A stretch of DNA of 64,000 nucleotides from an uncultured Acidobacteriota bacterium (GTDB taxonomy: Bacteria > Acidobacteriota > Terriglobia > 20CM-2-55-15), in contig CAWIJI010000011.1 of NCBI GenBank assembly GCA_963836435.1, forward strand, positions 9,678 to 73,677, read 5' to 3'. Shown piece after piece: positions 39,423-51,303 of the stretch (position 1 is its first letter; every line of letters starts with the position of its first letter). Position numbers and translations under genes: made by a program. The notes under the pieces are model-generated. The model was not told where the DNA came from. It searched no databases and saw only the letters and a list, made by a program, of their open reading frames with translations.

Positions 39423-40469
39423 TCAGGGTCGAACGGAAGACTGTTCACTATCTGTATTAGCCAGTTTTTTCAACGCCCATGCCGCGTGCGACCGCACATG
39501 TTCGTCCTCGTGGTCGAGGTAGCGGCGCAGCTTCGGAACCAGAGAGCGCAGGCCCGAGTTTCCGGCCACGATCATCAGGTTGCGTAACAGTCCCTTTACT
39601 CTGGCTCGCTTCAATGAGGTGCCCCGGATTTGCGAGGTCCATTCCTCGTGGGAGAAATCAAGGAGAGTTTCCAGCGCAGGCCAGAAGAGTCCGCTCTGCG
39701 GCAGGAATGCCGGATCGTTTGACGCCGGAGCTCGGCGATTCCACGGGCACACGTCCTGACAAATATCACACCCGAAAAGATGGTGCCCCAGCCCGTCGCG
39801 CGTTTCTTCGGGAATGGCCCCGCGTAACTCAATCGTGGCGTACGAAATGCACTTTCTGCTGTCGAGAACATAAGGCGCGACGAAAGCGTCCGTCGGGCAC
39901 GCGTCCAGACAACGCGTGCAGGACCCGCAGCGATCCGGAGGCGGCAGGTCGGGTTGAAGCTCGGCATCGGTAAGAACGCACCCCAGAAACAACCACGACC
40001 CCACTCCTTGATTGATGATGCAGGTGTTTTTGCCGAACCACCCGATGCCCGCATATTTTGCGAAAACCCGTTCCGTCAGCGGCCCGGTGTCCACATAGCA
40101 CCGGGTGCTCGCCCCGCCGTTTGCTTCAATCCAGCGTGCCAGCTCGCGCAGTTTCTTCTGAAGCGTTTTGTGGTAGTCCTTTCCCCATGCGTAGCGCGAA
40201 ACCCACGCGCGAAGGCTGTCGAACGAAGTCCGCACATGGTTTGTGTTGTAATTGACGGCGCAGACAATCACCGAACGTGCGCCAGGCAGGACAGACTGCG
40301 GGTCCATCCGTGCCGCCCGCTGTCGTTCGAGGTAATGCATCTCGCCGGCATACCCGCGATCAAGCCACTCCGCATAGAAATCGCTTTCGCGGGTGGGCTC
40401 GATCGGCGCAATTCCGGAGAGCGTGAATCCCAGCGTTGCGGCGAAGTTCTTGATGTCTTGCGCGTTCAT
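39423..40469 (-). CDS. queG: tRNA epoxyqueuosine(34) reductase
   Basis: Two 4Fe-4S ferredoxin motifs (CGSCTRCLDACPT, CDICQDVCPWN) and a C-terminal HEAT-like tail. Confidence 0.9.
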   Translation of the reverse strand: MNAQDIKNFAATLGFTLSGIAPIEPTRESDFYAEWLDRGYAGEMHYLERQRAARMDPQSVLPGARSVIVCAVNYNTNHVRTSFDSLRAWVSRYAWGKDYHKTLQKKLRELARWIEANGGASTRCYVDTGPLTERVFAKYAGIGWFGKNTCIINQGVGSWLFLGCVLTDAELQPDLPPPDRCGSCTRCLDACPTDAFVAPYVLDSRKCISYATIELRGAIPEETRDGLGHHLFGCDICQDVCPWNRRAPASNDPAFLPQSGLFWPALETLLDFSHEEWTSQIRGTSLKRARVKGLLRNLMIVAGNSGLRSLVPKLRRYLDHEDEHVRSHAAWALKKLANTDSEQSSVRP

Positions 40470-40515
40470 TGACCGTTCTAAGATACGCTCGAGCGTGCTA
40501 CTATTTCGATTCCTC

Positions 40516-40588
<73 letters not shown>

Positions 40589-40614
40589 TACACTTAAAGA
40601 TCAGACTGGGTTTC

Positions 40615-40635
40615 GGGGTACCACTGGGGTACCCC
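40615..40635 (+). other. perfect palindromic hairpin GGGGTACCactgGGGTACCCC 27 nt after tRNA-Lys
   Basis: Seen directly. May act as a terminator for the tRNA or lie at the boundary of the downstream island. Confidence 0.4.
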
Positions 40636-40677
40636 GTGGCCGCTATTGGGATTGAAGCGCGGCAGAGTAAGGCATTT

Positions 40678-41073
40678 CTATCTGACGATGAGTTCAGCGG
40701 CATTTGCGAGTTCTGTCGCAAGCTTCAACCAGCTGCCCTGATCCTGAGGAGGCCAATTTACGATGTTTCCGTGGCGTTCATGGGGGCGCGTATCGGGCTC
40801 GACAGTCAGTCCACGATTGAAAACTTCAGATGCTGAAAGATCGGCCCGTGCAATTATCGGTTTTCCGCGATGAGGAGCGACGTAGTCATCTCCGAGTTTC
40901 CAAATCTCCCCGTCACCTAGTTCATTTGTCCGATAGATAGATAGACTGAGATTCGCATGCGGAGGCGTGAAAGCGTTGAACTTCACTCGCTTTTTGACGG
41001 CAGAATACTTCGACCTCTCGTCCAAATATCTTGTGAGGCGCTCTTCAGCTCCGACGCTGCGCAGATCGATCAT
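40678..41073 (-). CDS. hypothetical protein (third gene of island operon)
   Basis: 131-aa ORF, 6 nt downstream of the previous gene. Has a ...PHERHGNIVNWPP motif. No confident family call. Confidence 0.45.
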   Translation of the reverse strand: MIDLRSVGAEERLTRYLDERSKYSAVKKRVKFNAFTPPHANLSLSIYRTNELGDGEIWKLGDDYVAPHRGKPIIARADLSASEVFNRGLTVEPDTRPHERHGNIVNWPPQDQGSWLKLATELANAAELIVR

Positions 41074-41079
41074 CTCGGG

Positions 41080-41592
41080 TTACGCCTGCTTGAACCGGTT
41101 CAGCCTCGAAAGGGCATCGATGATGTGTCCCGGAATCGAGTCGTTGAATGCCAGTACCCCGGATATCGCGTTGGGAGTCCCCTCAAGGCTTGCATACGTG
41201 AGCGACTGGCGCCCTGCCATAGCAACCACGAGGAGGTGATTCTTCTCGACGTACCATTCCAGACCAATCTGACCGTTTGGCGAAGGAACAATCTCTGGCA
41301 TCTCATTCATCGAAGGAAGGAGACTGATGAACCGGGATGCTTCCCGATACGCGTCAACTGATATGGGAGCAGCTCCCTCACCGTCCCAGTTTTCCATGCG
41401 GCATTCCACAAAGACTGTGTTGAGTCTCCGGAGCGTCTCAGATTTTGGGCTGAGGAGCACAGCTCGGGCGACGGCCTCGGTGTACTGCCGAACCAATAGC
41501 TGCGCTAGATGCTGCGACTCTACGCCAATACCCGTGTTTGCGTAGTAGCCGAAGCCTTGATAGTTGCGGTGCTCTGCAATGGCTGGACTCAT
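41080..41592 (-). CDS. hypothetical protein (second gene of island operon)
   Basis: 170-aa ORF with a 4-nt overlap with the TIGR04255-like gene. Confidence 0.45.
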   Translation of the reverse strand: MSPAIAEHRNYQGFGYYANTGIGVESQHLAQLLVRQYTEAVARAVLLSPKSETLRRLNTVFVECRMENWDGEGAAPISVDAYREASRFISLLPSMNEMPEIVPSPNGQIGLEWYVEKNHLLVVAMAGRQSLTYASLEGTPNAISGVLAFNDSIPGHIIDALSRLNRFKQA

Positions 41593-42353
41593 TCGAACAA
41601 CCTCACAGCCTTTTCAGTTAGGCTTGCGAAAAAAATCTTGTTTTTGAAGTTCCGGAGACCATCAAGCCTTGGCCAGATCGATGCGTCTCCGGGGTCGAAG
41701 TCGGATTGAATCCTCGTATCAATATCAAGAATGACATTTACCCGGTCCGGTTCCGTTACTCCCTCAAAAGCCTGAGTTATCGTTGCCGTGGCTGTAGGCT
41801 CTTCATTCTCAATCGTGACTCGTGTCACGAACCGCGAGACCTGTTGCGGCAATCCATTCGGAACAATTGGGGCCGCGACTAGATACTCGCCAAATGTATC
41901 GAACGGCGTAGGAAGTGCCAGATCATTGATGAATCTCACACCTAGTTTGGTCACCTTCGTAGGGTTTGTCGCCTCCCGATATAGATGCCACATCTCTTCG
42001 GTCAGCTTTCGAAAGTCCTCCCATTGTGTGTAAGGCCGGAGCCAATTGAACGTAAACCCATCCTTGCGAAATTGGACTGCTCTCGTCTTATCGGCATTAA
42101 GACAACGGAACCCCAAAATGTTCTGCTCGAAGCGACCTTGATTCTCTTTCAGGTCTAATTGAAACTGGCCCTCCGCGACATTGTGAACATTCGGATATTC
42201 GGCCGACACCCGTTCAACAAGGGACTGCAACAATTTCAACTGGAGAGCGCGGTCCGCGTCTTTAGGAAACCCGACGAAAATATCAATCAGGGCTTCTCTA
42301 ATGGGAGCGTTGTTTAGGTGATGGGGCTCACGCATTTTGGGCTCTTCTATCAA
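41589..42353 (-). CDS. TIGR04255-like family protein (conserved protein of unknown function)
   Basis: N-terminal NAPIREALIDIFVGF resembles the TIGR04255 N-terminus. 254 aa. Confidence 0.5.
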   Translation of the reverse strand: MIEEPKMREPHHLNNAPIREALIDIFVGFPKDADRALQLKLLQSLVERVSAEYPNVHNVAEGQFQLDLKENQGRFEQNILGFRCLNADKTRAVQFRKDGFTFNWLRPYTQWEDFRKLTEEMWHLYREATNPTKVTKLGVRFINDLALPTPFDTFGEYLVAAPIVPNGLPQQVSRFVTRVTIENEEPTATATITQAFEGVTEPDRVNVILDIDTRIQSDFDPGDASIWPRLDGLRNFKNKIFFASLTEKAVRLFE

Positions 42354-42775
42354 ATCTTCGACGTTTCAACTAAGAGAACGTGTACTGCCTGGGACGGCAA
42401 AGCCTCGCAAGGACCTTATTGAGTGGTTCGTGCTGTTCATTGAACCCCGGATCCGCGAAGGTCGCCGGTTTCCAACGGGGGCACTAGGGTTCAGTTTCAT
42501 CACTGATGATCCCCTTTCTGTATGACGGTTGCAACCAAGGCGTGATGAAGCCTGACCTTGATGCTCAATCATTTATTACCCGCATGAGGGACAGAGTAGG
42601 TCATGGGCTCTGCCACAATTGGCAACATTGCAATACTTCACATATGAAACTGTCCTCACATGGGGGAACAACCCTCGTGTTTTTGAGCATAGTCAGCAGG
42701 TCAATAGCTCCGAGGTTATGTTGCCGGTATACACGGGCAGCCGTACAACCAGAGCCACGAGAATCAGAGGTCCCT

Positions 42776-43261
42776 ATGGCAAACGAAACACCTCCTCCGG
42801 AGTTGTCGTTGGACGACATCTACCGAAAGTTCGGAGAGGTCGCTGAAGCTGCGCAGCTACTTGAACTCGAACTGGGAACTTTCTTGCTCGGAATTCATGG
42901 GGCCGAATCGAAGCTCTACCTGCTCGAAAACCAAGATCAAGCCATCGAAATCCACGACTTCATTAACAAGAGCACGTTAGGGCAAGTTCTGAAAAGAATC
43001 GGCCGCAAGACAGATGCCGAAGCCGTGGAGCGGCTATTCGCCAAGGCACTTGCCGAACGTAATCGGCTGTCCCATTCCTTCTATCGGCACCACAATTTCC
43101 GACGGAACTCTTCGGAAGGCCGCAGGATCATGCTTGATGATTTGGAAGCGATGCACGAGACAATACTCGACGCGTGGAAGGTGGCCGCCGCCCTGTCAGG
43201 TACAGACTTGGAAGCGTTCAAAGGATTCGTGCTGCCATCGCAGCACGTAGACTTGGATTGA
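42776..43261 (+). CDS. HEPN-like all-alpha protein (Rx4H motif ERNRLSH), paralog 1
   Basis: Start set at MANETPPPEL, since the upstream part of the long ORF is Cys/Arg-rich read-through. Helical throughout, with the candidate catalytic motif near the C-terminal third. Confidence 0.45.
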   Translation: MANETPPPELSLDDIYRKFGEVAEAAQLLELELGTFLLGIHGAESKLYLLENQDQAIEIHDFINKSTLGQVLKRIGRKTDAEAVERLFAKALAERNRLSHSFYRHHNFRRNSSEGRRIMLDDLEAMHETILDAWKVAAALSGTDLEAFKGFVLPSQHVDLD

Positions 43262-43360
43262 CGAGCCGCTGGAAGAATTGCCTCATTTGAGATAATCAGC
43301 AACATGCCGCACTCGACATACGGCGATAGAATCCCACTAACGATTCCCTTCGGAGGTTGT

Positions 43361-43693
43361 ATGAATAAGAGTATGCTTCCCAAATTGGTTGGTTCCCATC
43401 TACGAGTCCGGCCAATCTTGCGCCGATTCGATGAGTTCGGGGAACTTTCGCCTGAGGATGATCGCTGGCACGTCCAATACGCGGACGCCGAGGGAATCCG
43501 CGTATTGAATATTCGAACGCACCATGTCCTGACGATTCCGCCCGACCACATCCATGAGTTTCGTTCCGACAGTTCACCCTACTTTCCGGGAATAGCAACG
43601 GGCTTCCTGATGTTGCACAGCCAAGTTTGGCTTCAGGGTAGGAATGCTGGCCTCGAACCTCTGGATTGGGCATACGAACCGCGCAACTATTGA
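43361..43693 (+). CDS. small hypothetical protein between the two HEPN-like paralogs
   Basis: About 110-aa ORF from MNKSMLPKL. No recognisable motif. Confidence 0.3.
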   Translation: MNKSMLPKLVGSHLRVRPILRRFDEFGELSPEDDRWHVQYADAEGIRVLNIRTHHVLTIPPDHIHEFRSDSSPYFPGIATGFLMLHSQVWLQGRNAGLEPLDWAYEPRNY

Positions 43694-43704
43694 GGTACGC
43701 CTCA

Positions 43705-44154
43705 ATGAGCAAAGATGCGTTCTTCCTAAACGTCGCCCATGCACTTTCCGGTTGTCAACTGGTTGAGCAGGAGCTAAAGCTCTACATCACGGAGGCACTT
43801 GATTTCGTCAGACAGCGACTTGACGACAGAATGCCTTTCAAGATGTGCGGAGAGAACTATGCAAACTCGTCATTGGAGGGGCTGATTTCAATATTCCAGA
43901 AACTCACAAGAAATGTTGAACTCGTCAATCAACTGGGAAAGTTCAAAGAAGAGCGCAATTTTCTTAGTCACAAAGGAATCGCAGCTTGCTTCGACTACGA
44001 TGGTGAGTTTGACTACCCTACGGCGCTTGACATGCAGCCCCGGTTAGATGGGATAAAAATTGAAGCAGAAAGACTTCGCCATGCCATCCACGAGGAAGGA
44101 AGCAAAATTGAAAGGTGCCGGCCGGCGGATTTTGATGACGTGTCGGAACAATAA
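43705..44154 (+). CDS. HEPN-like all-alpha protein (Rx4H motif ERNFLSH), paralog 2
   Basis: Start MSKDAFFLNV, with GAGG 8 nt upstream. Collinear similarity to paralog 1 (...LGQVLKRIGRK...AERNRLSH versus ...LEGLISIFQKLTRN...EERNFLSH). Confidence 0.45.
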   Translation: MSKDAFFLNVAHALSGCQLVEQELKLYITEALDFVRQRLDDRMPFKMCGENYANSSLEGLISIFQKLTRNVELVNQLGKFKEERNFLSHKGIAACFDYDGEFDYPTALDMQPRLDGIKIEAERLRHAIHEEGSKIERCRPADFDDVSEQ

Positions 44155-44214
44155 GATCACAGAACCCTAAACGGCAACTCCGCCTCTGCGAGTGCTGCTT
44201 CGCGAATCTTGCGA

Positions 44215-44646
44215 TCAGATGAGAACGCCCGCTTTTGAATCTCGATGTCGGATTCGAGTCGAACCGCAAGCGAAGTTAGTCCGACAACAAGGACGGAGCA
44301 ACCGAGAGCGTTTGCTCTTCTCGGAAAGCTCATGCAGCTTGGGATCTGATTTCTCAAGGAAAGCAAAAAACTCTTCCTCCTCCTTCGGTCGCATACTCGC
44401 CGGTTTTGCCTCACCCGACATACTTGCCGCACTAGGACGCGCAGCAATAGATTCCTCGACAGCAGCAACGTGCTTGCACTTCTGCCCTTGGCGATACTGC
44501 GACGACGGACAGGAGCAGGGCGGAGTGCTGCGGAGGTCTATGAGATAGCGAATGCCAGGTCCCTTCTCTGAGGCGACGCTGTAATCACCCTCTGGCTCCT
44601 CCCGAACATCGGGGTTCCACGTTGCCGTACTCGCCTTAGTTGACAT
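44215..44646 (-). CDS. small SWIM-type zinc-finger ORF (CxCx(n)CxH). Boundaries are uncertain.
   Basis: CSCPSSQYRQGQKCKH matches the SWIM pattern. The C-terminal part may continue in another frame (44157..44468). Confidence 0.35.
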   Translation of the reverse strand: MSTKASTATWNPDVREEPEGDYSVASEKGPGIRYLIDLRSTPPCSCPSSQYRQGQKCKHVAAVEESIAARPSAASMSGEAKPASMRPKEEEEFFAFLEKSDPKLHELSEKSKRSRLLRPCCRTNFACGSTRIRHRDSKAGVLI

Positions 44647-45456
44647 ACTTACCTCCCCGCTCCATGACACGTCGGCAAACCGCTTCCGTTGTGGTTCTCC
44701 GCTCCCGTGCGCTCCGCCGCAAATACACCTTGCACCATGCCTGCACTCCATCACGAGAGGATTTGTTCGACCAAAACTCGGAGCGCGGCTGCGGCTTGCC
44801 CCGTTTGTGGCAGCGGGAATTCGTGCACACCTTCTTGAAGGCCGAACTCCATGCCGGGTGTAATTGTTGTGGAACAGGCTCTTGCACTGGACTGGACGGA
44901 GCAGAAGCGGTCGTGTGAATGCCTAACCACGAACCACGCGCTACAAAAACCACAGGGCCGAAACGCCACGTGGACAAGCTTTGGCGCCGGTTGTTCAGCG
45001 TCGACTAATTTTGTCCTGCGACGACAATTAGAATCCTGGTCGTGGTTTGTTATTAATCGTCGCCGGGCTTGTGAGTAACTGTGGAAAACGCAGCAGGGTT
45101 TTCCAAACAGCGTTGGAAATCCCCAACGGAAGCCTTCGGCAATTTTTTCTTGATGATTTCCACACGCTGCTTGAAAAAGCCTACGCAAAAACCGCTTCGG
45201 CTTTTTCACAGTTACACACAGGCCCGGCGGCGGATAAATAAACAACTCACGGGTTACTTTTAAAATGAGTTGCCGACATCCCCCAAAGTTACATTTTCAA
45301 ATGAATTGATAGAGTCCGGCCCTTTTGCGTGTGTGGGGAATTTTGGGGGAAGCATCCGCCTTCAGGAAGCCCGTGAGTGTGCCTTCCACGAAATCGTTAT
45401 CGGGAACGTCAGGACCGTAACGACATCGATAAAGAGAGTCCACCGTGAAGCGCACT

Positions 45457-47134
45457 CTAGGAGCCTGTAGGGGATAGATTTCTAGATTTCGATCAAAAAC
45501 GGGACCAGTGTTGACGAGCGGGCAGGTAAAAGACGAAGGCATGACCAAATGCTTTGTTGATGACGAAATCGATCAGATATTGATGATGCCGCCGTCGCTG
45601 CACGATTGGCTCCCGGAAGACCATTTGGCGCGATTCGTGGCGGATTTGGTGCCGAGCCTGGATCTGTCGGCGTTCTACGCTTCCTATGAAGAGAAAGATG
45701 GACGAGGCAATGCTGCCTATCATCCGGTGATGATGGTGCGGTTGCTGGTCTATGGCTACTGCATCGGAGTCGTGAGTTCGCGGCAGATCGAGAAACGGAC
45801 ATACGAGGATGTGGCGTTCCGGTATTTGAGCGCGGATGAACATCCGCACTACACGACGATCAACGAATTTCGGAAACGGCATTTGAAAGCATTGGAGGGA
45901 TTGTTCCTGCAGGTGCTGGAGCTATGTCAGGCAGCGGGTCTGGTGAAGATGGGGCATGTGGCCCTGGACGGGACGAAGAAGCAGGCGAACGCCAGCAAGC
46001 ACAAGGCGATGAGCTATGGGCGGATGGGAGAAGCGGAAGAAAGGCTCAGAGCGCAGGTGAAGGAACTGCTCGATCGCGCTGAAGCCGTCGACGCGGCCGA
46101 AGATGAAATGGAGCGGCAAGGTTACAGCGACAAGTTGCCTGCGGAATTGGCGCGGCGGGAGAGCCGGTTGAAAAAAATCGCCGAGGCGAAGGCGGCGCTG
46201 GAAGCGGAAGCGCGGCGGAAAGCGGAAGAGAAGAAAGCTCAAGCCGAGGCGCGAATTGCCGAGCGGCAGCAGCAGGAGCAGGAGACGGGAAAGAAGATCG
46301 GCGGGCGGGCGCCGCAGATTCCCGATCCGGAGCAGGCCAAGCCAGAGGATTGCGCGCAACGCAATTTCACCGATCCTGACAGCCGGATTATGGTCGACGG
46401 AGCGAACAAAGGCAGCTTCGTACAAGCCTACAACGCGCAGATCGCGGTGGATGCCGAAGCGCAAATCATCGTTGCCGCCGACGTCACGCAGGAAGTCAAC
46501 GACAAGCAGCAATTGGCGCCGATGTTCGAGCAGGTCGAAAAGAATACAGGAGCCAAACCAGTGGCGGGCAGCGCCGATAATGGTTATTGGGCTCCAGAAC
46601 AAATTGCCGACAAGCACGTCGAAGGCATCGATCTCCACATAGCCACCGGGCGGGATAAGCATGGAGCATCGGAGCAAACCGCGCCGTCAGCGGAGTCCGC
46701 AAAAGCGGCGACAGCTCTGGAGCAGATGAAGCAGAAACTGCAAACGGAGGCGGGGCGCGCCATTTACAAAATGCGCAAGGCGATCGTCGAACCAGTGTTT
46801 GGCCAGATCAAGGAATGCCGTCATTTTCGACGCTTCAGTCTTCGAGGCTTGGAAAACGTCAGAGCGGAGTGGAAACTTGTCTGCGCGACACACAACCTTC
46901 TGAAGTTATTTCGATCGGGACGCGGATTTCAGGCTGCGGCGGCATGAAGAGGATGCAGGAACCTCAGAAAACATGATGAGACCGAACTTCTCTCGCCAGT
47001 CTCCCCGTGTTCTCGTGCGTCAAGCCTCAAACGCAATGTCGACGGTTCCCGAACGGCGACCTGCGGAATTTTTCGACACGGAAAATTTCGAATTTTGGGA
47101 ACGGCGACCTGCCTTATCCCCTACAGGCTCCTAG
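45457..47134 (+). mobile_element. IS1182-like insertion sequence (about 1.68 kb) with perfect 20-bp terminal inverted repeats
   Basis: Left end CTAGGAGCCTGTAGGGGATA at 45457-45476. Right end TATCCCCTACAGGCTCCTAG at 47115-47134 is its exact reverse complement. Single transposase ORF inside. Confidence 0.85.
45541..46947 (+). CDS. IS1182-family (IS5-superfamily) DDE transposase
   Basis: N-terminal ...LPEDHLARFV... region, a central coiled-coil and a DDE_Tnp_1-like C-terminal half. About 468 aa from MTKCFVDDEI. Confidence 0.8.
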   Translation: MTKCFVDDEIDQILMMPPSLHDWLPEDHLARFVADLVPSLDLSAFYASYEEKDGRGNAAYHPVMMVRLLVYGYCIGVVSSRQIEKRTYEDVAFRYLSADEHPHYTTINEFRKRHLKALEGLFLQVLELCQAAGLVKMGHVALDGTKKQANASKHKAMSYGRMGEAEERLRAQVKELLDRAEAVDAAEDEMERQGYSDKLPAELARRESRLKKIAEAKAALEAEARRKAEEKKAQAEARIAERQQQEQETGKKIGGRAPQIPDPEQAKPEDCAQRNFTDPDSRIMVDGANKGSFVQAYNAQIAVDAEAQIIVAADVTQEVNDKQQLAPMFEQVEKNTGAKPVAGSADNGYWAPEQIADKHVEGIDLHIATGRDKHGASEQTAPSAESAKAATALEQMKQKLQTEAGRAIYKMRKAIVEPVFGQIKECRHFRRFSLRGLENVRAEWKLVCATHNLLKLFRSGRGFQAAAA

Positions 47135-47226
47135 GTCTAGGAACGACGCGGCTCTGACAGCTTGACTGCTCGGGCGCCCGATTCGCTTATATACCGCTCC
47201 GTCAATGGCATACCATTCTGAGTGCC

Positions 47227-48051
47227 ATGTACAGCCAGCTCGCCGCGCTCTCCAGTGACCACGTTGTGCTTGATCTGGGCAGTGGCAGTAGCAGCTTTCA
47301 CTACGAAACATGTCCCGCAAAGATCATTGCGATCGACGTATCGTCTGACAGAACGCCCGTCATGCTTTCTGAACGCGTGGCCTTCATTCATGCAAATGCA
47401 GCTTCTCTCCCACTGGCCGACAAATCAGCGGACGTCGTTATCTCTCACCACACGTTGGAGCATTTCGCCGACTACAGGGGGGTACTGTCGGAAATATATC
47501 GAGTCTTGAGACCTGACGGTTGGTTATGGATTGCGGTGCCAAACGGTTATGGTTTCGACGATTTTCTTTACCGGTGGGTGTTCTCGGGGGGTGGGCATGT
47601 CAACCGGTTCAGGCATGATGCACTCGTTACCGAAGTGGAGGAAGTAACGCGACTTCGGTTGCGCGATGAGTGCGCGTTGTTCAGCGGTTTCGTTTATCTG
47701 AAAAAGCCGACGGCGCGCGAGCTGCAACACTACCCGCCATCAGCCAGGCCTCTTGGAAATATTCCGGACGGTTTTTCCCACTTTGGCTCTCTCGCGTTGA
47801 ACGGTGTTACACGCATTGCCGACAGACTGTTTGGGTCGCGTCTCAGCCAATATGGCTGGGGATTGTTATTTTCGAATGCCGGATTGAATGCCTCGGGGCT
47901 TCCTTCGTACTTCAATGTTTGCCGCAGCTGTGGGTCCGGGCTCTCCTATCGCTTGCTGAAACGGAAAACTCTCTTTGGAGTCGGTCTTTATCATTGTCCT
48001 TACTGCAAAGTGCCCAACGTTTGTGTCGTTCCACCGGATTCTTGTGAATAA
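47227..48051 (+). CDS. class I SAM-dependent methyltransferase (Methyltransf_11-like)
   Basis: Motif I VLDLGSGSSSF, ...VISHHTLEHF..., LRPDGWLWIAVPNG. Confidence 0.8.
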   Translation: MYSQLAALSSDHVVLDLGSGSSSFHYETCPAKIIAIDVSSDRTPVMLSERVAFIHANAASLPLADKSADVVISHHTLEHFADYRGVLSEIYRVLRPDGWLWIAVPNGYGFDDFLYRWVFSGGGHVNRFRHDALVTEVEEVTRLRLRDECALFSGFVYLKKPTARELQHYPPSARPLGNIPDGFSHFGSLALNGVTRIADRLFGSRLSQYGWGLLFSNAGLNASGLPSYFNVCRSCGSGLSYRLLKRKTLFGVGLYHCPYCKVPNVCVVPPDSCE

Positions 48052-48138
48052 CTGCGATGAAAATGCTGAGCTCGTTATGGCGGGCGTAACGAGAATTTTG
48101 TTCCCGCAAGGCATAACGGGCCAGGCGCCGAAGGCGCC

Positions 48139-48400
48139 CTGGAGTTTAGAAATTTTTGAGTCTGAGCGGGCGCGGAGACACGAGGTTACGTCTCCGGTTT
48201 GCAGGTTCGTCCGCAAGGCGATGGCGACGTTGAAACGTGAGTCTCAAGCACGCCGGAGGCGTGCTGAGAATTTAGCCCCGGGTTAAGCGAGCGAAGCGAG
48301 CGCAACCCGGGGTTGCCGTAACGGAGATGTTCGCACCCCGGCAGGGGTGCAGGGATTCCTCGCACCCCGGCAGGGGTGCGAAGGCCGCTCGTGAGATGAG
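48139..48400 (+). repeat. MITE-like hairpin repeat family, copy 3 (with extra ~100-bp module after the left TIR)
   Basis: ctggagtttagaaattttt ... [100-bp module also present inverted at 60247-60352] ... cacgccggaggcgtgctgagaatttagccccgggttaagcgagcgaagcgagcgcaacccgggg ... gtgagatgag. Confidence 0.8.
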
Positions 48401-48455
48401 CAATCTTCCTGAGGATATCCGACTCAAGCGTTCCTGACGGATAGTTCAAGCGTAA

Positions 48456-49175
48456 ATGATATCTTCCGGCAGAATGATGAGGCGAACGGCTCGCATCTGT
48501 TGGATCGTGGCAATAGTTGCGCTGGCAACCCTGCCCTTCCTGGGCCGCGCTGTTTTCCTGGATGAACATTTGTTGCTCCTGCTCGTGCGCGGAGTTTTGA
48601 CGAACGGCGTGTCGGCCCATCTGGATGTGCCGACTATCTTCTTTGGAATTTCTCTCGAGAATCTGTCTTCGCATGCGCATCCGCCAGTAGCCGAATACTG
48701 TCTCGCCCTGCTCTACAAATTGTTCGGCGGCTTCAATGGGCCGGGATTCCGCATGGCGTTTTCTCTTTTTCCTCTTTCCGCCGCACTTGCCTTCTATGAT
48801 CTCGCTCGGCGTTTCACGCGCACTCCTTTGATCGTTACCCTGGTTTTTGCTGCCAGTCCCGCTTACTTCGTGATGAGTTCCACTTTGATGGCGGACATTC
48901 CCTCTCTGAGTTTTCTGCTCATTGGCTTCGCTTTGTATCTCAGGGGATCCTTATGGCCGGCTTCATTCTCTTTTGCACTCGCGCTCGGCACGACCTATCC
49001 GACTTTGATTCCTTTTTGTTCTCTGCTCATCTGGATGGCGTTGAATCGGCGTCCTGCTCGAGAGTTTGCGGCGCTGGCCGCTGCTCCCCTACCTCTCGTG
49101 GCGTGGTTGGCCCTGACCGCATTTCATTTCCATCAGATTCCACTTCTTCTTCCAAGTCGTCATACAGAGGGATGA
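48456..49175 (+). CDS. polytopic membrane protein resembling the N-terminal half of a GT-C glycosyltransferase (PMT/ArnT-like); possibly truncated
   Basis: DE motif in the first loop (FLDEH) and about 7 TM helices. Only 239 aa, against 450-550 aa for typical family members. A downstream +ORF (49351..49815) might be a displaced C-terminal part. Confidence 0.4.
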   Translation: MISSGRMMRRTARICWIVAIVALATLPFLGRAVFLDEHLLLLLVRGVLTNGVSAHLDVPTIFFGISLENLSSHAHPPVAEYCLALLYKLFGGFNGPGFRMAFSLFPLSAALAFYDLARRFTRTPLIVTLVFAASPAYFVMSSTLMADIPSLSFLLIGFALYLRGSLWPASFSFALALGTTYPTLIPFCSLLIWMALNRRPAREFAALAAAPLPLVAWLALTAFHFHQIPLLLPSRHTEG

Positions 49176-49584
49176 CAACCGACAGTTTCATGGAATTTCT
49201 GGTCGCTGTTTGGAAGCAGTCATCCCGCAATCTTTGGTGGCCTTCCGCGGACGTTCAATACCTTTCTGAGAGTGAGGGGTGGCGTATCCTTTCAGCAGGA
49301 TGCTTGACCTGCGTGACTAAAAGTAAGGAGACGCTTGTCGGTGGGCGTCGGTGATGGAGCTGTTTTGTTGCGGCCAGAGTGACTGGAGCCGCGACGGTTA
49401 CGCCGATCAGAGGATAGTCGTACCAAGGACATTGTTGGATGCGATCGCTTCCTTTGGTTATGTGAAGGACTGGTACCGACCACCGAAACGCGGCTTTATC
49501 GAGGTACTGAGGAGGCTTTGCCTTATGCGACCTTCGGCTCGGAAGATGCTCGCCGGTCTCTCTCCCAGCGAGTTTACCGGGCCG

Positions 49585-50037
49585 CTACTCGTTGACTCTT
49601 TGAAGCTGCTTAACGTCCAGCAGGTCCTTGTCCCGGCCGGACGCTTTCTTGTTCGCAATCAAAGCATCGAGACCAATGTAATCGACGGTATGTCCACCAA
49701 GATCTCCCTGAACCCGAGACGTCCACGCCTGTTCGAAGGACAAACCAGAGATCATCGTCAAGATGTCGATCCTATTGGGTGGCCGGCCAAGCTGAATCAT
49801 TCGGCCAGGCTTTGAAAGGTCTTCAATCGTGAGGGATAACGCTCCGAAGCCAAAAGCCGCAAGGGCATCCATTACTCTTGCTGCATTTTCTGACGTCGGT
49901 CTTACGAGGATATCGATATCGCCTGTATAGCGGGGATGTCCGTGAAATGCCACGGCGTGCCCGCCAACGACAAGAAACTCAACTTTCCTGGAGATCAGTA
50001 ATACGACAAACTCGCTCAAATCGGTCTGCAGCGCCAA
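49585..50037 (-). CDS. minimal nucleotidyltransferase-fold protein (MNT-like)
   Basis: Signature VVGGHAVAFHGHPRYTGDIDILV (GGx9-13 DxD). Confidence 0.6.
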   Translation of the reverse strand: MALQTDLSEFVVLLISRKVEFLVVGGHAVAFHGHPRYTGDIDILVRPTSENAARVMDALAAFGFGALSLTIEDLSKPGRMIQLGRPPNRIDILTMISGLSFEQAWTSRVQGDLGGHTVDYIGLDALIANKKASGRDKDLLDVKQLQRVNE

Positions 50038-50170
50038 GAGACCTCCGGTAGTTTTCGATCAGGTTGAGGAGGATGTCGACGCGTTCTTTGGGTGTAAGAC
50101 TGGCATAGTACTCAGCGTCGGCGCGTTCCGCTTCTTCAAAGCTTTGAAAGACTCTGGCTTCGCGTTCCAC
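49979..50170 (-). CDS. small helical protein upstream of and overlapping the MNT-like gene (possible cognate partner)
   Basis: 63-aa ORF (FQSFEEAERADAEYYASLTPKERVDILLNL...). Overlaps the NTase start by 59 nt. Confidence 0.35.
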   Translation of the reverse strand: MEREARVFQSFEEAERADAEYYASLTPKERVDILLNLIENYRRSLGAADRFERVCRITDLQES

Positions 50171-50589
50171 AAGGAAAATCTAACACGGTTCGTCGATAAT
50201 CGGCGCACTCGAGGGGACGCGCCTTACTGCAGCCACGGCTCGGAGCGGCCCGGATTCCGTGCAACCTGAACGATGGAGCGCCCCCGGAAAAACCCAACGG
50301 AATACCTCTGATAAGACACGGCGAATGCCCGGAGCACTATCAAAAAACCGCCGATCCCTAACTTGCGTGCCCATGAGGGCAAAGATTTCCCGCAAGGGCG
50401 CATCAGTCTGAACGCAGTCAGCGCAAAGGGGCGGCGAGAATGCCGCGTCGTCGAAAAGGTAGAAGTCGAAGCCGCGAGTGACGACCGTCGGTGAGCCGCG
50501 CCGTTCGTGCCAACCATCCGAAGGCTCCTTCGATCGCGTCTGCCGGCGGGTGGAAATACCGCAGCGTGATCGTAGAGTACAATTTCATC

Positions 50590-51303
50590 ATGAATAAGGG
50601 GCTGCTTGCCGGGGCGCGCGTGATCTTTATCCTGACGATGACGCTGCACACGACCCGCTCAGCTGCTATCGCCCAGCATGTGCTCGCCGGAATGAAGGTC
50701 GGTGGCCACGTGATCGCCCCCCTCGCCCTCCCTCGCTACGGTTCATCTACGCCGACCGCGTACAATGCGTTCACTCTTGGTCCCGTAGTGGAGTTGACGC
50801 TGCCGCACCGCGCGGGTGTCGAACTCGACGCGTTGCACAAAAGTTATGCTTACACCTATGCCGGCGGGGTTGATGTTGGTTTTTACTCACCGGCCTCAGG
50901 CGGAATCCTGGGGAAATCCGATGTTCACGTTCGCAGCTGGGAGTTTCCTGCTTTGATGAAGCTGCGTCTTACCGACCGTGTATCGCGCCTCTTCATGGCA
51001 GGGGGGATTTCGTTTCGGCACACCAGCGCTTCAGCTCATGTCCAGGGCAACCGATTTGGTCCGTTTTATAGCCAGGCGCCGACTCCGGTGGATTTCACGC
51101 AGAGTTCTCGCGCACTGATTCGAAGATGGACTACCGGGGCAGTGGTGGGGATGGGCGTTAATCTGCGCGCCGGTGACTTCCAATTTGCCCCTGAAGTCCG
51201 ATACAACTACTGGACCCATCCCGCCATCAGCCAGGGGCTGGGGTTCAGGTCGCAGCAAAATGCCATCGATGTCCTCGTGGGCTTGACGTTTGGAAAGAGA
51301 TGA
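50590..51303 (+). CDS. outer-membrane beta-barrel (porin/OmpA-like barrel) protein
   Basis: Signal peptide MNKGLLAGARVIFILTMTLHTTRSAAIA. Alternating amphipathic beta strands with an aromatic-rich C-terminus. Confidence 0.55.
   Translation: MNKGLLAGARVIFILTMTLHTTRSAAIAQHVLAGMKVGGHVIAPLALPRYGSSTPTAYNAFTLGPVVELTLPHRAGVELDALHKSYAYTYAGGVDVGFYSPASGGILGKSDVHVRSWEFPALMKLRLTDRVSRLFMAGGISFRHTSASAHVQGNRFGPFYSQAPTPVDFTQSSRALIRRWTTGAVVGMGVNLRAGDFQFAPEVRYNYWTHPAISQGLGFRSQQNAIDVLVGLTFGKR

Follow-up and report, generated by a model that had tools for sequence, protein, structure and literature searches.

Two small genes in the genome of an uncultured Acidobacteriota bacterium, here called A and B, probably represent two new, previously unannotated families of stand-alone HEPN-like proteins. 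They are located in a window of 64,000 nucleotides (nt), the whole stretch of DNA that was analysed (assembly GCA_963836435.1, contig CAWIJI010000011.1, positions 9,678 to 73,677), to which all coordinates refer unless another locus is named. The best explanation, to which we assign a probability of about 0.6, is that A and B each belong independently to the HEPN superfamily as stand-alone proteins, probably ribonucleases (RNases) acting in conflict or defence, and that their position on either side of a third small gene, M, is a chance neighbourhood in a tRNA-Lys island.

The locus

The three genes and the residues of interest are arranged as follows.

42776..43261, + strand: gene A, encoding a stand-alone HEPN-like protein of 161 amino acids (aa), family A, with GAGG 8 nt upstream
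42863..42865, + strand: Glu30 of A, invariant acidic residue in the first long helix, from alignment conservation
43055..43075, + strand: E94-R95-N96-R97-L98-S99-H100 of A, predicted catalytic Rx4H motif, from conservation and model
43361..43693, + strand: gene M, encoding a 110-aa protein, with GGAGG upstream and no family match
43705..44154, + strand: gene B, encoding a 149-aa stand-alone HEPN-like protein, family B
43765..43779, + strand: E21-x3-K25 (Ex3K) of B in the first long helix, from alignment conservation
43951..43971, + strand: E83-R84-N85-F86-L87-S88-H89 of B, predicted catalytic Rx4H motif, from conservation and model

A preliminary description made from the letters of this DNA had placed two open reading frames (ORFs) with the motifs ERNRLSH and ERNFLSH here. 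Both ORFs exist at 42776..43261 and 43705..44154 on the + strand, and both motifs are present as Rx4H with an asparagine after the arginine (...AERNRLSHSFY... in A, ...EERNFLSHKGI... in B), so that this physical observation was correct. The ORF of about 110 aa seen between them is also real, as it receives the same call in a Logan contig, a second and independent assembly of the same sequence in which A, M and B are called together and M has 110 aa, and as it possesses four full-length homologues. Mechanically, the M frame opens at 43304, and the GGAGG precedes the ATG at 43361. All three ORFs are co-oriented, with 99 nt between A and M and 11 nt between M and B. Shine-Dalgarno-like sequences precede A and B, ribosome-binding sites are found in all three genes, and the three are possibly co-transcribed.

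Size, conservation and predicted structure of the two families

Family A is large and spread over many bacterial phyla, with 819 homologues in a word-index search and, at E<=1e-3, at least 1282 cluster representatives at 50% identity; for family B there are 412 matches. Gene A has no match above threshold in Pfam, NCBIfam or PADLOC, gene B none in these libraries or in PHROGs, and no Pfam domain was found on the homologues of either family. The sole significant library match of A is phrog_12893, a PHROGs family of unknown function (E = 1.3e-20).

Among about 320 distinct sequences of family A, R95, N96 and H100 are each conserved to 99% and L98 to 98%; further conserved columns are Q27 (99%), H106 (97%) and G115 (99%). 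E30 is present in 100% of 324 sequences, with a glycine (G34) and not K/R at position +4. In family B (195 sequences) the corresponding values are 100% for R84 and 99% each for N85 and H89, while E21 and K25 both reach 100% (194-195 sequences), and Q18 (100%), C17 (99%) and C95 (98%) are further conserved columns. The arginine and histidine, the asparagine after the arginine and the upstream glutamate are thus near-invariant across both families, and the objection that the pair might be lost among homologues, raised in the preliminary description itself, is thereby removed. Conservation at this level goes far past what chance could produce. In one 213-aa member of family A (P0010) the N-terminal half is partly duplicated internally, with a second AAQxLET...NKST segment and two stretches matched by the profile.

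Both proteins are all-helical in AlphaFold models, as had been supposed from the sequence. In the model of A (predicted local distance difference test score, pLDDT, of 75) a helix of residues 81-100 ends at H100 and is followed by a kink and the helices of residues 102-141. The model of B (pLDDT 84) has R84-H89 within a helix of residues 71-93, then a loop (94-103) and a last long helix (104-137). Common to both is a long first helix, followed by a low-confidence variable region (residues about 40-70) with short helices before the motif helix.

Probable assignment to the HEPN superfamily

In the HEPN fold, four helices form an up-down bundle, and a variable insert separates helix 2 from helix 3 (PMC3710099). 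Its Rx4-6H motif, with a polar N, D or H after the arginine, is located where helix 3 closes or where the loop to helix 4 opens, often together with an upstream acidic residue in the form Ex3[KR], which the survey puts in helix 2; HEPN domains without RNase function are typically without the Rx4-6H motif (PMC3710099). In both families the polar residue after the arginine is asparagine, and R, N and H are conserved to 99-100%. In the predicted models, the penultimate long helix has the motif at its end, the last helix follows, and a variable insert lies upstream. An upstream acidic residue is present in both, in B as Ex3K and in A as the invariant E30 only, without K/R at +4.

Profile searches point in the same direction at sub-threshold level, since the matches with E = 0.0008-0.2 concentrate on HEPN models in Pfam, PADLOC and NCBIfam. 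In Pfam, members of family A matched HEPN_Apea (4), RiboL-PSP (3), Cthe2314 (3), DUF4145 (2), MAE_28990 and LA2681, and members of family B matched HEPN_Apea and Csx1_HEPN, the matches covering the motif region. The PADLOC models were Cas13-ApeA, Csx1, Csx1/Csm6 and several CARF_HEPN models; in NCBIfam, cas_csm6 was the only family matched by more than one member. A set of 41 divergent A members gave one HEPN_MAE_28990 match (E = 0.015) and none to Abi models. No profile search put A or B in a non-nuclease helical family, an outcome that would have spoken against the preliminary description, and the recurrent sub-threshold matches are to HEPN models only.

A search of the PDB with the profiles A1, A2, A3 and the merged A4 returned no HEPN chain and gave spurious matches to leucine-rich repeat, designed-bundle and GNAT proteins. 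When A3 and A2 were compared by hhalign with single known HEPN ORFs (Hypoth_Ymh, Abi_C and DUF4145-like, all Pfam-confirmed and taken from the fetched loci), these ranked 2 to 307 and were inseparable from the 480 random ORFs that served as null, so that this test is powerless. As in the preliminary description, which had found no named HEPN family for the two proteins, neither A nor B has a Pfam or PADLOC match above threshold to Abi_2/AbiD-F, AbiU2, AbiV, Abi_C/AbiJ, RnlA, LsoA or MAE_28990.

Membership of A and B in the HEPN superfamily is held to be quite likely: the signature and the predicted topology are found, and the profile and structure comparisons are suggestive but stay below significance. 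Of the HEPN reading in the preliminary description, the conservation of the motif, its position and the direction of the sub-threshold matches have stood, but none of these matches reaches significance.

Mobile and conflict-related contexts

The surroundings of family A were surveyed at 80 genome loci, with all ORFs within 5 kb, from Acidobacteriota, Proteobacteria, Planctomycetota, Gemmatimonadota, Nitrospirota, Omnitrophota, Cloacimonadota, Thermotogota and Spirochaetia, and those of family B at 80 metagenome loci comprising 356 kb. Individual loci are given below by numbers with the letter L.

The clearest case for B is Halothiobacillus diazotrophicus (L004, CP016027), where the B homologue is a single-gene integron cassette: 2 nt separate the end of an attC site from its ATG, and the stop codon marks the start of its own 78-nt attC. 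At L004 4000-10330 an array of near-identical 96-nt attC sites stands beside an integron-type integrase gene (Phage_int_SAM_4/Phage_integrase), and its cassettes encode a TIR_2 protein, the family B protein, a 71-aa ORF, Abi_C (HEPN), acetyltransferases and CdiI_2. In L004 the distance between the two sites of several attC pairs is just 272 nt, which points to cassettes that are very small or empty. In other loci, attC-like sites were found 3' of the gene for 5/72 A genes and 1/52 B genes. In Pseudoalteromonas pPBSW1 (L179, 3582-4721) an inovirus-like prophage (Zot, DUF2523) has a B homologue at its edge. This homologue is closely enclosed by a 138-aa gene at a 2-nt gap and an overlapping gene for a 97-aa hydrophobic protein, neither of which is related to A or M.

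Members of family A were found in an integrative and conjugative element (ICE) between coupling protein and relaxase. Others neighbour a Hypoth_Ymh (HEPN) gene and a Hachiman system, or are carried by plasmids of Sinorhizobium and Pantoea. In addition, gp38 of Salmonella phage PSP3 belongs to family A (hidden Markov model (HMM) search, E = 6e-39); it comes after replication gene A and tumAB, with no further gene between it and the right cos end. In 31 of 5426 complete E. coli genomes, a P2-like prophage has a family A homologue between its replication endonuclease and portal genes. The locus between the replication endonuclease and portal/cos is the cos-proximal anti-phage hotspot (Rousset et al. 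2022; PMC9122126). The E. coli protein WP_001576649 of family A is listed in Table S5A of that work as 'hypothetical', and there is no sign in it of the gene among the tested systems (Rousset et al. 2022; PMC9122126). In E. coli SaT040 (L180, 2099-5420) this P2-like hotspot comprises genes for two hypothetical proteins (380 aa and 158 aa) and a DUF2971 protein together with the family A gene. A DUF2971 gene is common to this hotspot and the vicinity of the B homologue in L179. A precedent for such genes is Esos, a single-gene HEPN-like integron cassette of V. cholerae that confers phage defence (Darracq et al.).

A few of the 80 A loci contain a second, divergent A-like gene (A') beside A, two of them clearly and two more weakly, with the A-like motif RRNYLAHHYF / RRNWLAHDYF.

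L029, 4519-5456: A'-A neighbours, gap about 5 nt, the pair being translationally coupled
L052, 4348-5453: A'-A neighbours
L026, 5297-6322: A'-A neighbours, weaker
L051, 5532-6134: A'-A neighbours, weaker

These neighbours are possible candidates for heterodimeric HEPN pairs. As such loci are few, the adjacency of two HEPN genes is an occasional theme and not the rule.

Predicted function

A role of both families in phage exclusion, abortive infection or other intragenomic conflict is likely, since both travel as single genes on integron cassettes, in the P2 hotspot, on an ICE and in defence islands. Each protein would most likely act as a homodimer, as do characterised HEPN enzymes (PMC3710099). 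Two R-N-x3-H motifs, aided by the invariant upstream glutamate, may then build a metal-independent endoribonuclease site, which, judging from HEPN biochemistry, would cut RNA leaving 2',3'-cyclic phosphate ends and might result in growth arrest or phage exclusion. The adjacency of A, M and B would be a local accident of island assembly.

Several observations weigh against this interpretation. By sequence, no HEPN family and no solved HEPN structure is matched significantly in the searches of Pfam, NCBIfam, PADLOC and the PDB, and Foldseek of model B against the PDB retrieved generic four-helix bundles only (E >= 0.08) and no HEPN. The confidence of model A is only medium. The invariant glutamate belongs to the first of the predicted helices, but the acidic residue of the HEPN survey to helix 2 (PMC3710099), and the equivalence of the helices is therefore uncertain. 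Stand-alone HEPN RNases without an antitoxin would need another control of their toxicity. Finally, the spacing of 11 nt suggests co-translation of M and B and could still mean a local functional link.

A bolder version is tentative: families A and B may be autonomous single-protein HEPN immunity genes without antitoxin, encoding minimal RNases of about 150 aa that stay silent until a phage cue and spreading by way of integron cassettes and the P2 hotspot, and adjacent pairs (A and B, or A'-A of L029) may form heterodimeric composite active sites with altered specificity.

It is unlikely that A and B are non-catalytic helical bundles without RNase function, in which E, R-N and H would serve to bind ligands or nucleotides, as happens in the HEPN-like domains by which nucleotidyltransferases bind their substrates, or would take part in the recognition of other proteins. 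The missing profile significance and the generic bundles among the top structural matches would agree with this, as would the lack of the adjacent antitoxin that is expected for a constitutively toxic RNase. However, RNase-dead HEPN domains typically lose Rx4-6H, which here has R, N and H at 99-100%, the sub-threshold matches are to nuclease-type HEPN families (ApeA, Csx1/Csm6, RiboL-PSP), and the genomic contexts are of the defence type.

Relationship between A and B

In the preliminary description the two genes appeared as tandem paralogues, a claim that did not hold. Their identity is about 17%, BLASTP aligns only the surroundings of the motif (14/42 identities, E = 0.2), and hhalign of the profiles of close relatives gives a probability of 2%. 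A divergent A alignment (A3, 24-54% identity) compared with the B alignment (A2) raised this to 79.8% (E = 1.5e-5); the matched part comprises 90 collinear columns and reaches from the N-terminal helix (AQLLExEL vs CQLVEQEL) as far as ERNxLSH. When the B alignment was shuffled in blocks of 7 columns, the scores had a mean of 21, a standard deviation of 4.3 and a maximum of 38, close to the observed 38.9; the motif block thus accounts for most of the A3-B signal, and the case for paralogy is the weaker for it. The A3 HMM matched 29/80 B-family ORFs and no other ORF in the 356 kb of B loci. A joint MAFFT alignment of both families and divergent relatives is collinear and has exactly four invariant columns, E30, R95, N96 and H100, so that the conserved R and H for which the preliminary description had proposed an alignment of the two proteins are indeed found. 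The base composition also differs, with a GC content of 0.53 in A and 0.47 in B, and of 0.62 and 0.52 at third codon positions. Judging from these sequence comparisons, A and B form two separate families that probably share a superfamily and are at best remotely related; they are not products of a local tandem duplication.

Gene M and the question of a module

Gene M has only four homologues, all full-length and with 64-75% identity, and no family match in Pfam, NCBIfam, PADLOC or PHROGs. The homologues stand after housekeeping genes and before a DUF4365 gene, or beside unrelated genes, and none of the five M loci with DNA has an A- or B-family gene beside it. M is a rare gene unrelated to A and B and outside any conserved unit with them.

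Nor do A and B occur together. B- or M-family ORFs were found in 0/80 A loci, and true A-family or M ORFs in 0/80 B loci. Clustering of the neighbours in all 160 loci revealed no recurrent partner of A or B, and no recurring minimal nucleotidyltransferase (MNT) partner; the largest clusters comprised an ORF judged tyrosine-recombinase-like by sequence alone (7/80 A loci) and an integrase-like ORF (5/80 B loci). Because of this lack of co-occurrence and of a recurrent neighbour, the existence of B as a one-gene cassette and the GC difference between A and B, the arrangement A-M-B is not a conserved module. The apparent operon of two toxins plus a small gene is a false lead.

A restricted form of the idea, in which only M and B belong together, M serving the HEPN effector B as antitoxin, regulator or sensor and A being an independent neighbour, is improbable. 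The M stop is 11 nt from the B start, and M homologues elsewhere are directly upstream of other putative effectors, namely a DUF4365 nuclease-like gene, which follows after 91 nt, and a 178-aa gene, which follows after 3 nt. Yet no M homologue was found in the 80 B loci or in L004, L009 or L179, four M relatives stand against hundreds for B, and B stands alone as a cassette.

Very improbable is the toxin-antitoxin or abortive-infection module of all three genes suggested in the preliminary description, in which M would neutralise or regulate two HEPN toxins: the shared orientation, the gaps of 99 nt and 11 nt, the ribosome-binding sites in all three genes and their joint call in the second assembly of the same sequence are outweighed by the absence of co-occurrence elsewhere (0/80 A, 0/80 B and 0/5 M loci) and of a conserved partner, by B as a single-gene integron cassette and A as lone cargo in P2 hotspots and the ICE, and by the differing GC of A and B.

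Comparison with known systems

Among the described systems, the stand-alone HEPN RNases are closest, especially the 'integron cassette HEPN' (PDB 3jrt; PMC3710099). Like A and B, it is a helical protein of about 150 aa with R-N-x3-H where helix 3 ends, plus an upstream acidic residue, and it is a single gene on mobile elements, as is the B cassette in Halothiobacillus. The Esos and Taranis cassettes of Vibrio cholerae, AbiJ/Abi_C and AbiV are autonomous small HEPN-like proteins on cassettes or prophages that lead to growth arrest or cell death on infection; their genomic niche is similar to that of A and B, Esos being likened by description only. However, A and B differ from Abi_C, AbiV, Abi_2 and AbiU2 in having no Pfam or PADLOC match to them. 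They also differ from HepT/MntA (type VII toxin-antitoxin), as they have no adjacent MNT, no DUF86/HEPN Pfam match and no conserved partner. The cargo of the P2 hotspot (old/tin locus; PMC9122126) comprises PSP3 gp38 and WP_001576649 of family A in the same locus, whereas gene A of the window is not in a P2-like prophage.

The probable tRNA-Lys island

The region 40516-50500 looks like a tRNA-linked genomic island. It begins with a tRNA-Lys(CTT) gene (40516..40588) right after queG and continues for about 10 kb with a GC content of 0.54, compared with 0.595 in the flanks, and with many small hypothetical genes. Neither an integrase nor a direct repeat of the tRNA 3' end was found in the island. 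No attC-like site is present at 40000..51000 and the window copy of B is not an integron cassette in this sense; an Rfam scan gave no non-coding RNA other than the tRNA, and there are no notable repeats between the genes. Explanations of the locus by attC sites, tandem repeats or non-coding RNA were rejected, given the absence of such sites, of notable repeats and of Rfam matches beyond the tRNA. Other features of the island are the following.

40678..41073, - strand: ORF weakly similar to PADLOC PDC-M32B (0.028)
41080..41592, - strand: ORF weakly similar to PADLOC PDC-M32A (2e-5)
41589..42353, - strand: TIGR04255 family protein (E = 1.4e-34)
44215-44754, - strand: ORF with a SWIM zinc finger (Pfam E = 4e-5, weak phrog_17897 match), converging on B
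45457-47134: apparently intact insertion sequence with 20-bp perfect terminal inverted repeats (45457-45476 and 47115-47134)
49585..50037, - strand: nucleotidyltransferase-like ORF of 150 aa (DUF6036/DUF2204, marginal scores)

A and B have as immediate neighbours the TIGR04255 gene, which is transcribed divergently, gene M, and the SWIM ORF, which is called as 143 aa in the second assembly. The three overlapping or abutting genes at 40678-42353 form an operon on the - strand, divergent from gene A, and this TIGR04255/PDC-M32-like operon is a possible candidate defence system. The insertion sequence encodes a 479-aa DDE transposase (DUF772, DDE_Tnp_1, DDE_Tnp_1_6). A GC-rich palindromic 20-mer (TCGCACCCCGGCAGGGGTGC) is present twice, side by side, at 48330-48382, and the two copies jointly form a larger inverted repeat. 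The DUF6036/DUF2204 ORF is MNT-antitoxin-like in type and lies 5.4 kb from the HEPN-like genes; no adjacent HEPN partner of it was seen. A methyltransferase gene is also located within the island.

Implications

Two large families without Pfam, NCBIfam or PADLOC annotation, and in the case of B also without PHROGs annotation, gain a probable HEPN RNase activity and a predicted role in conflict or defence. Since orthologues of family A exist in the P2 hotspot of E. coli and in PSP3, this prediction is directly testable in a model system.

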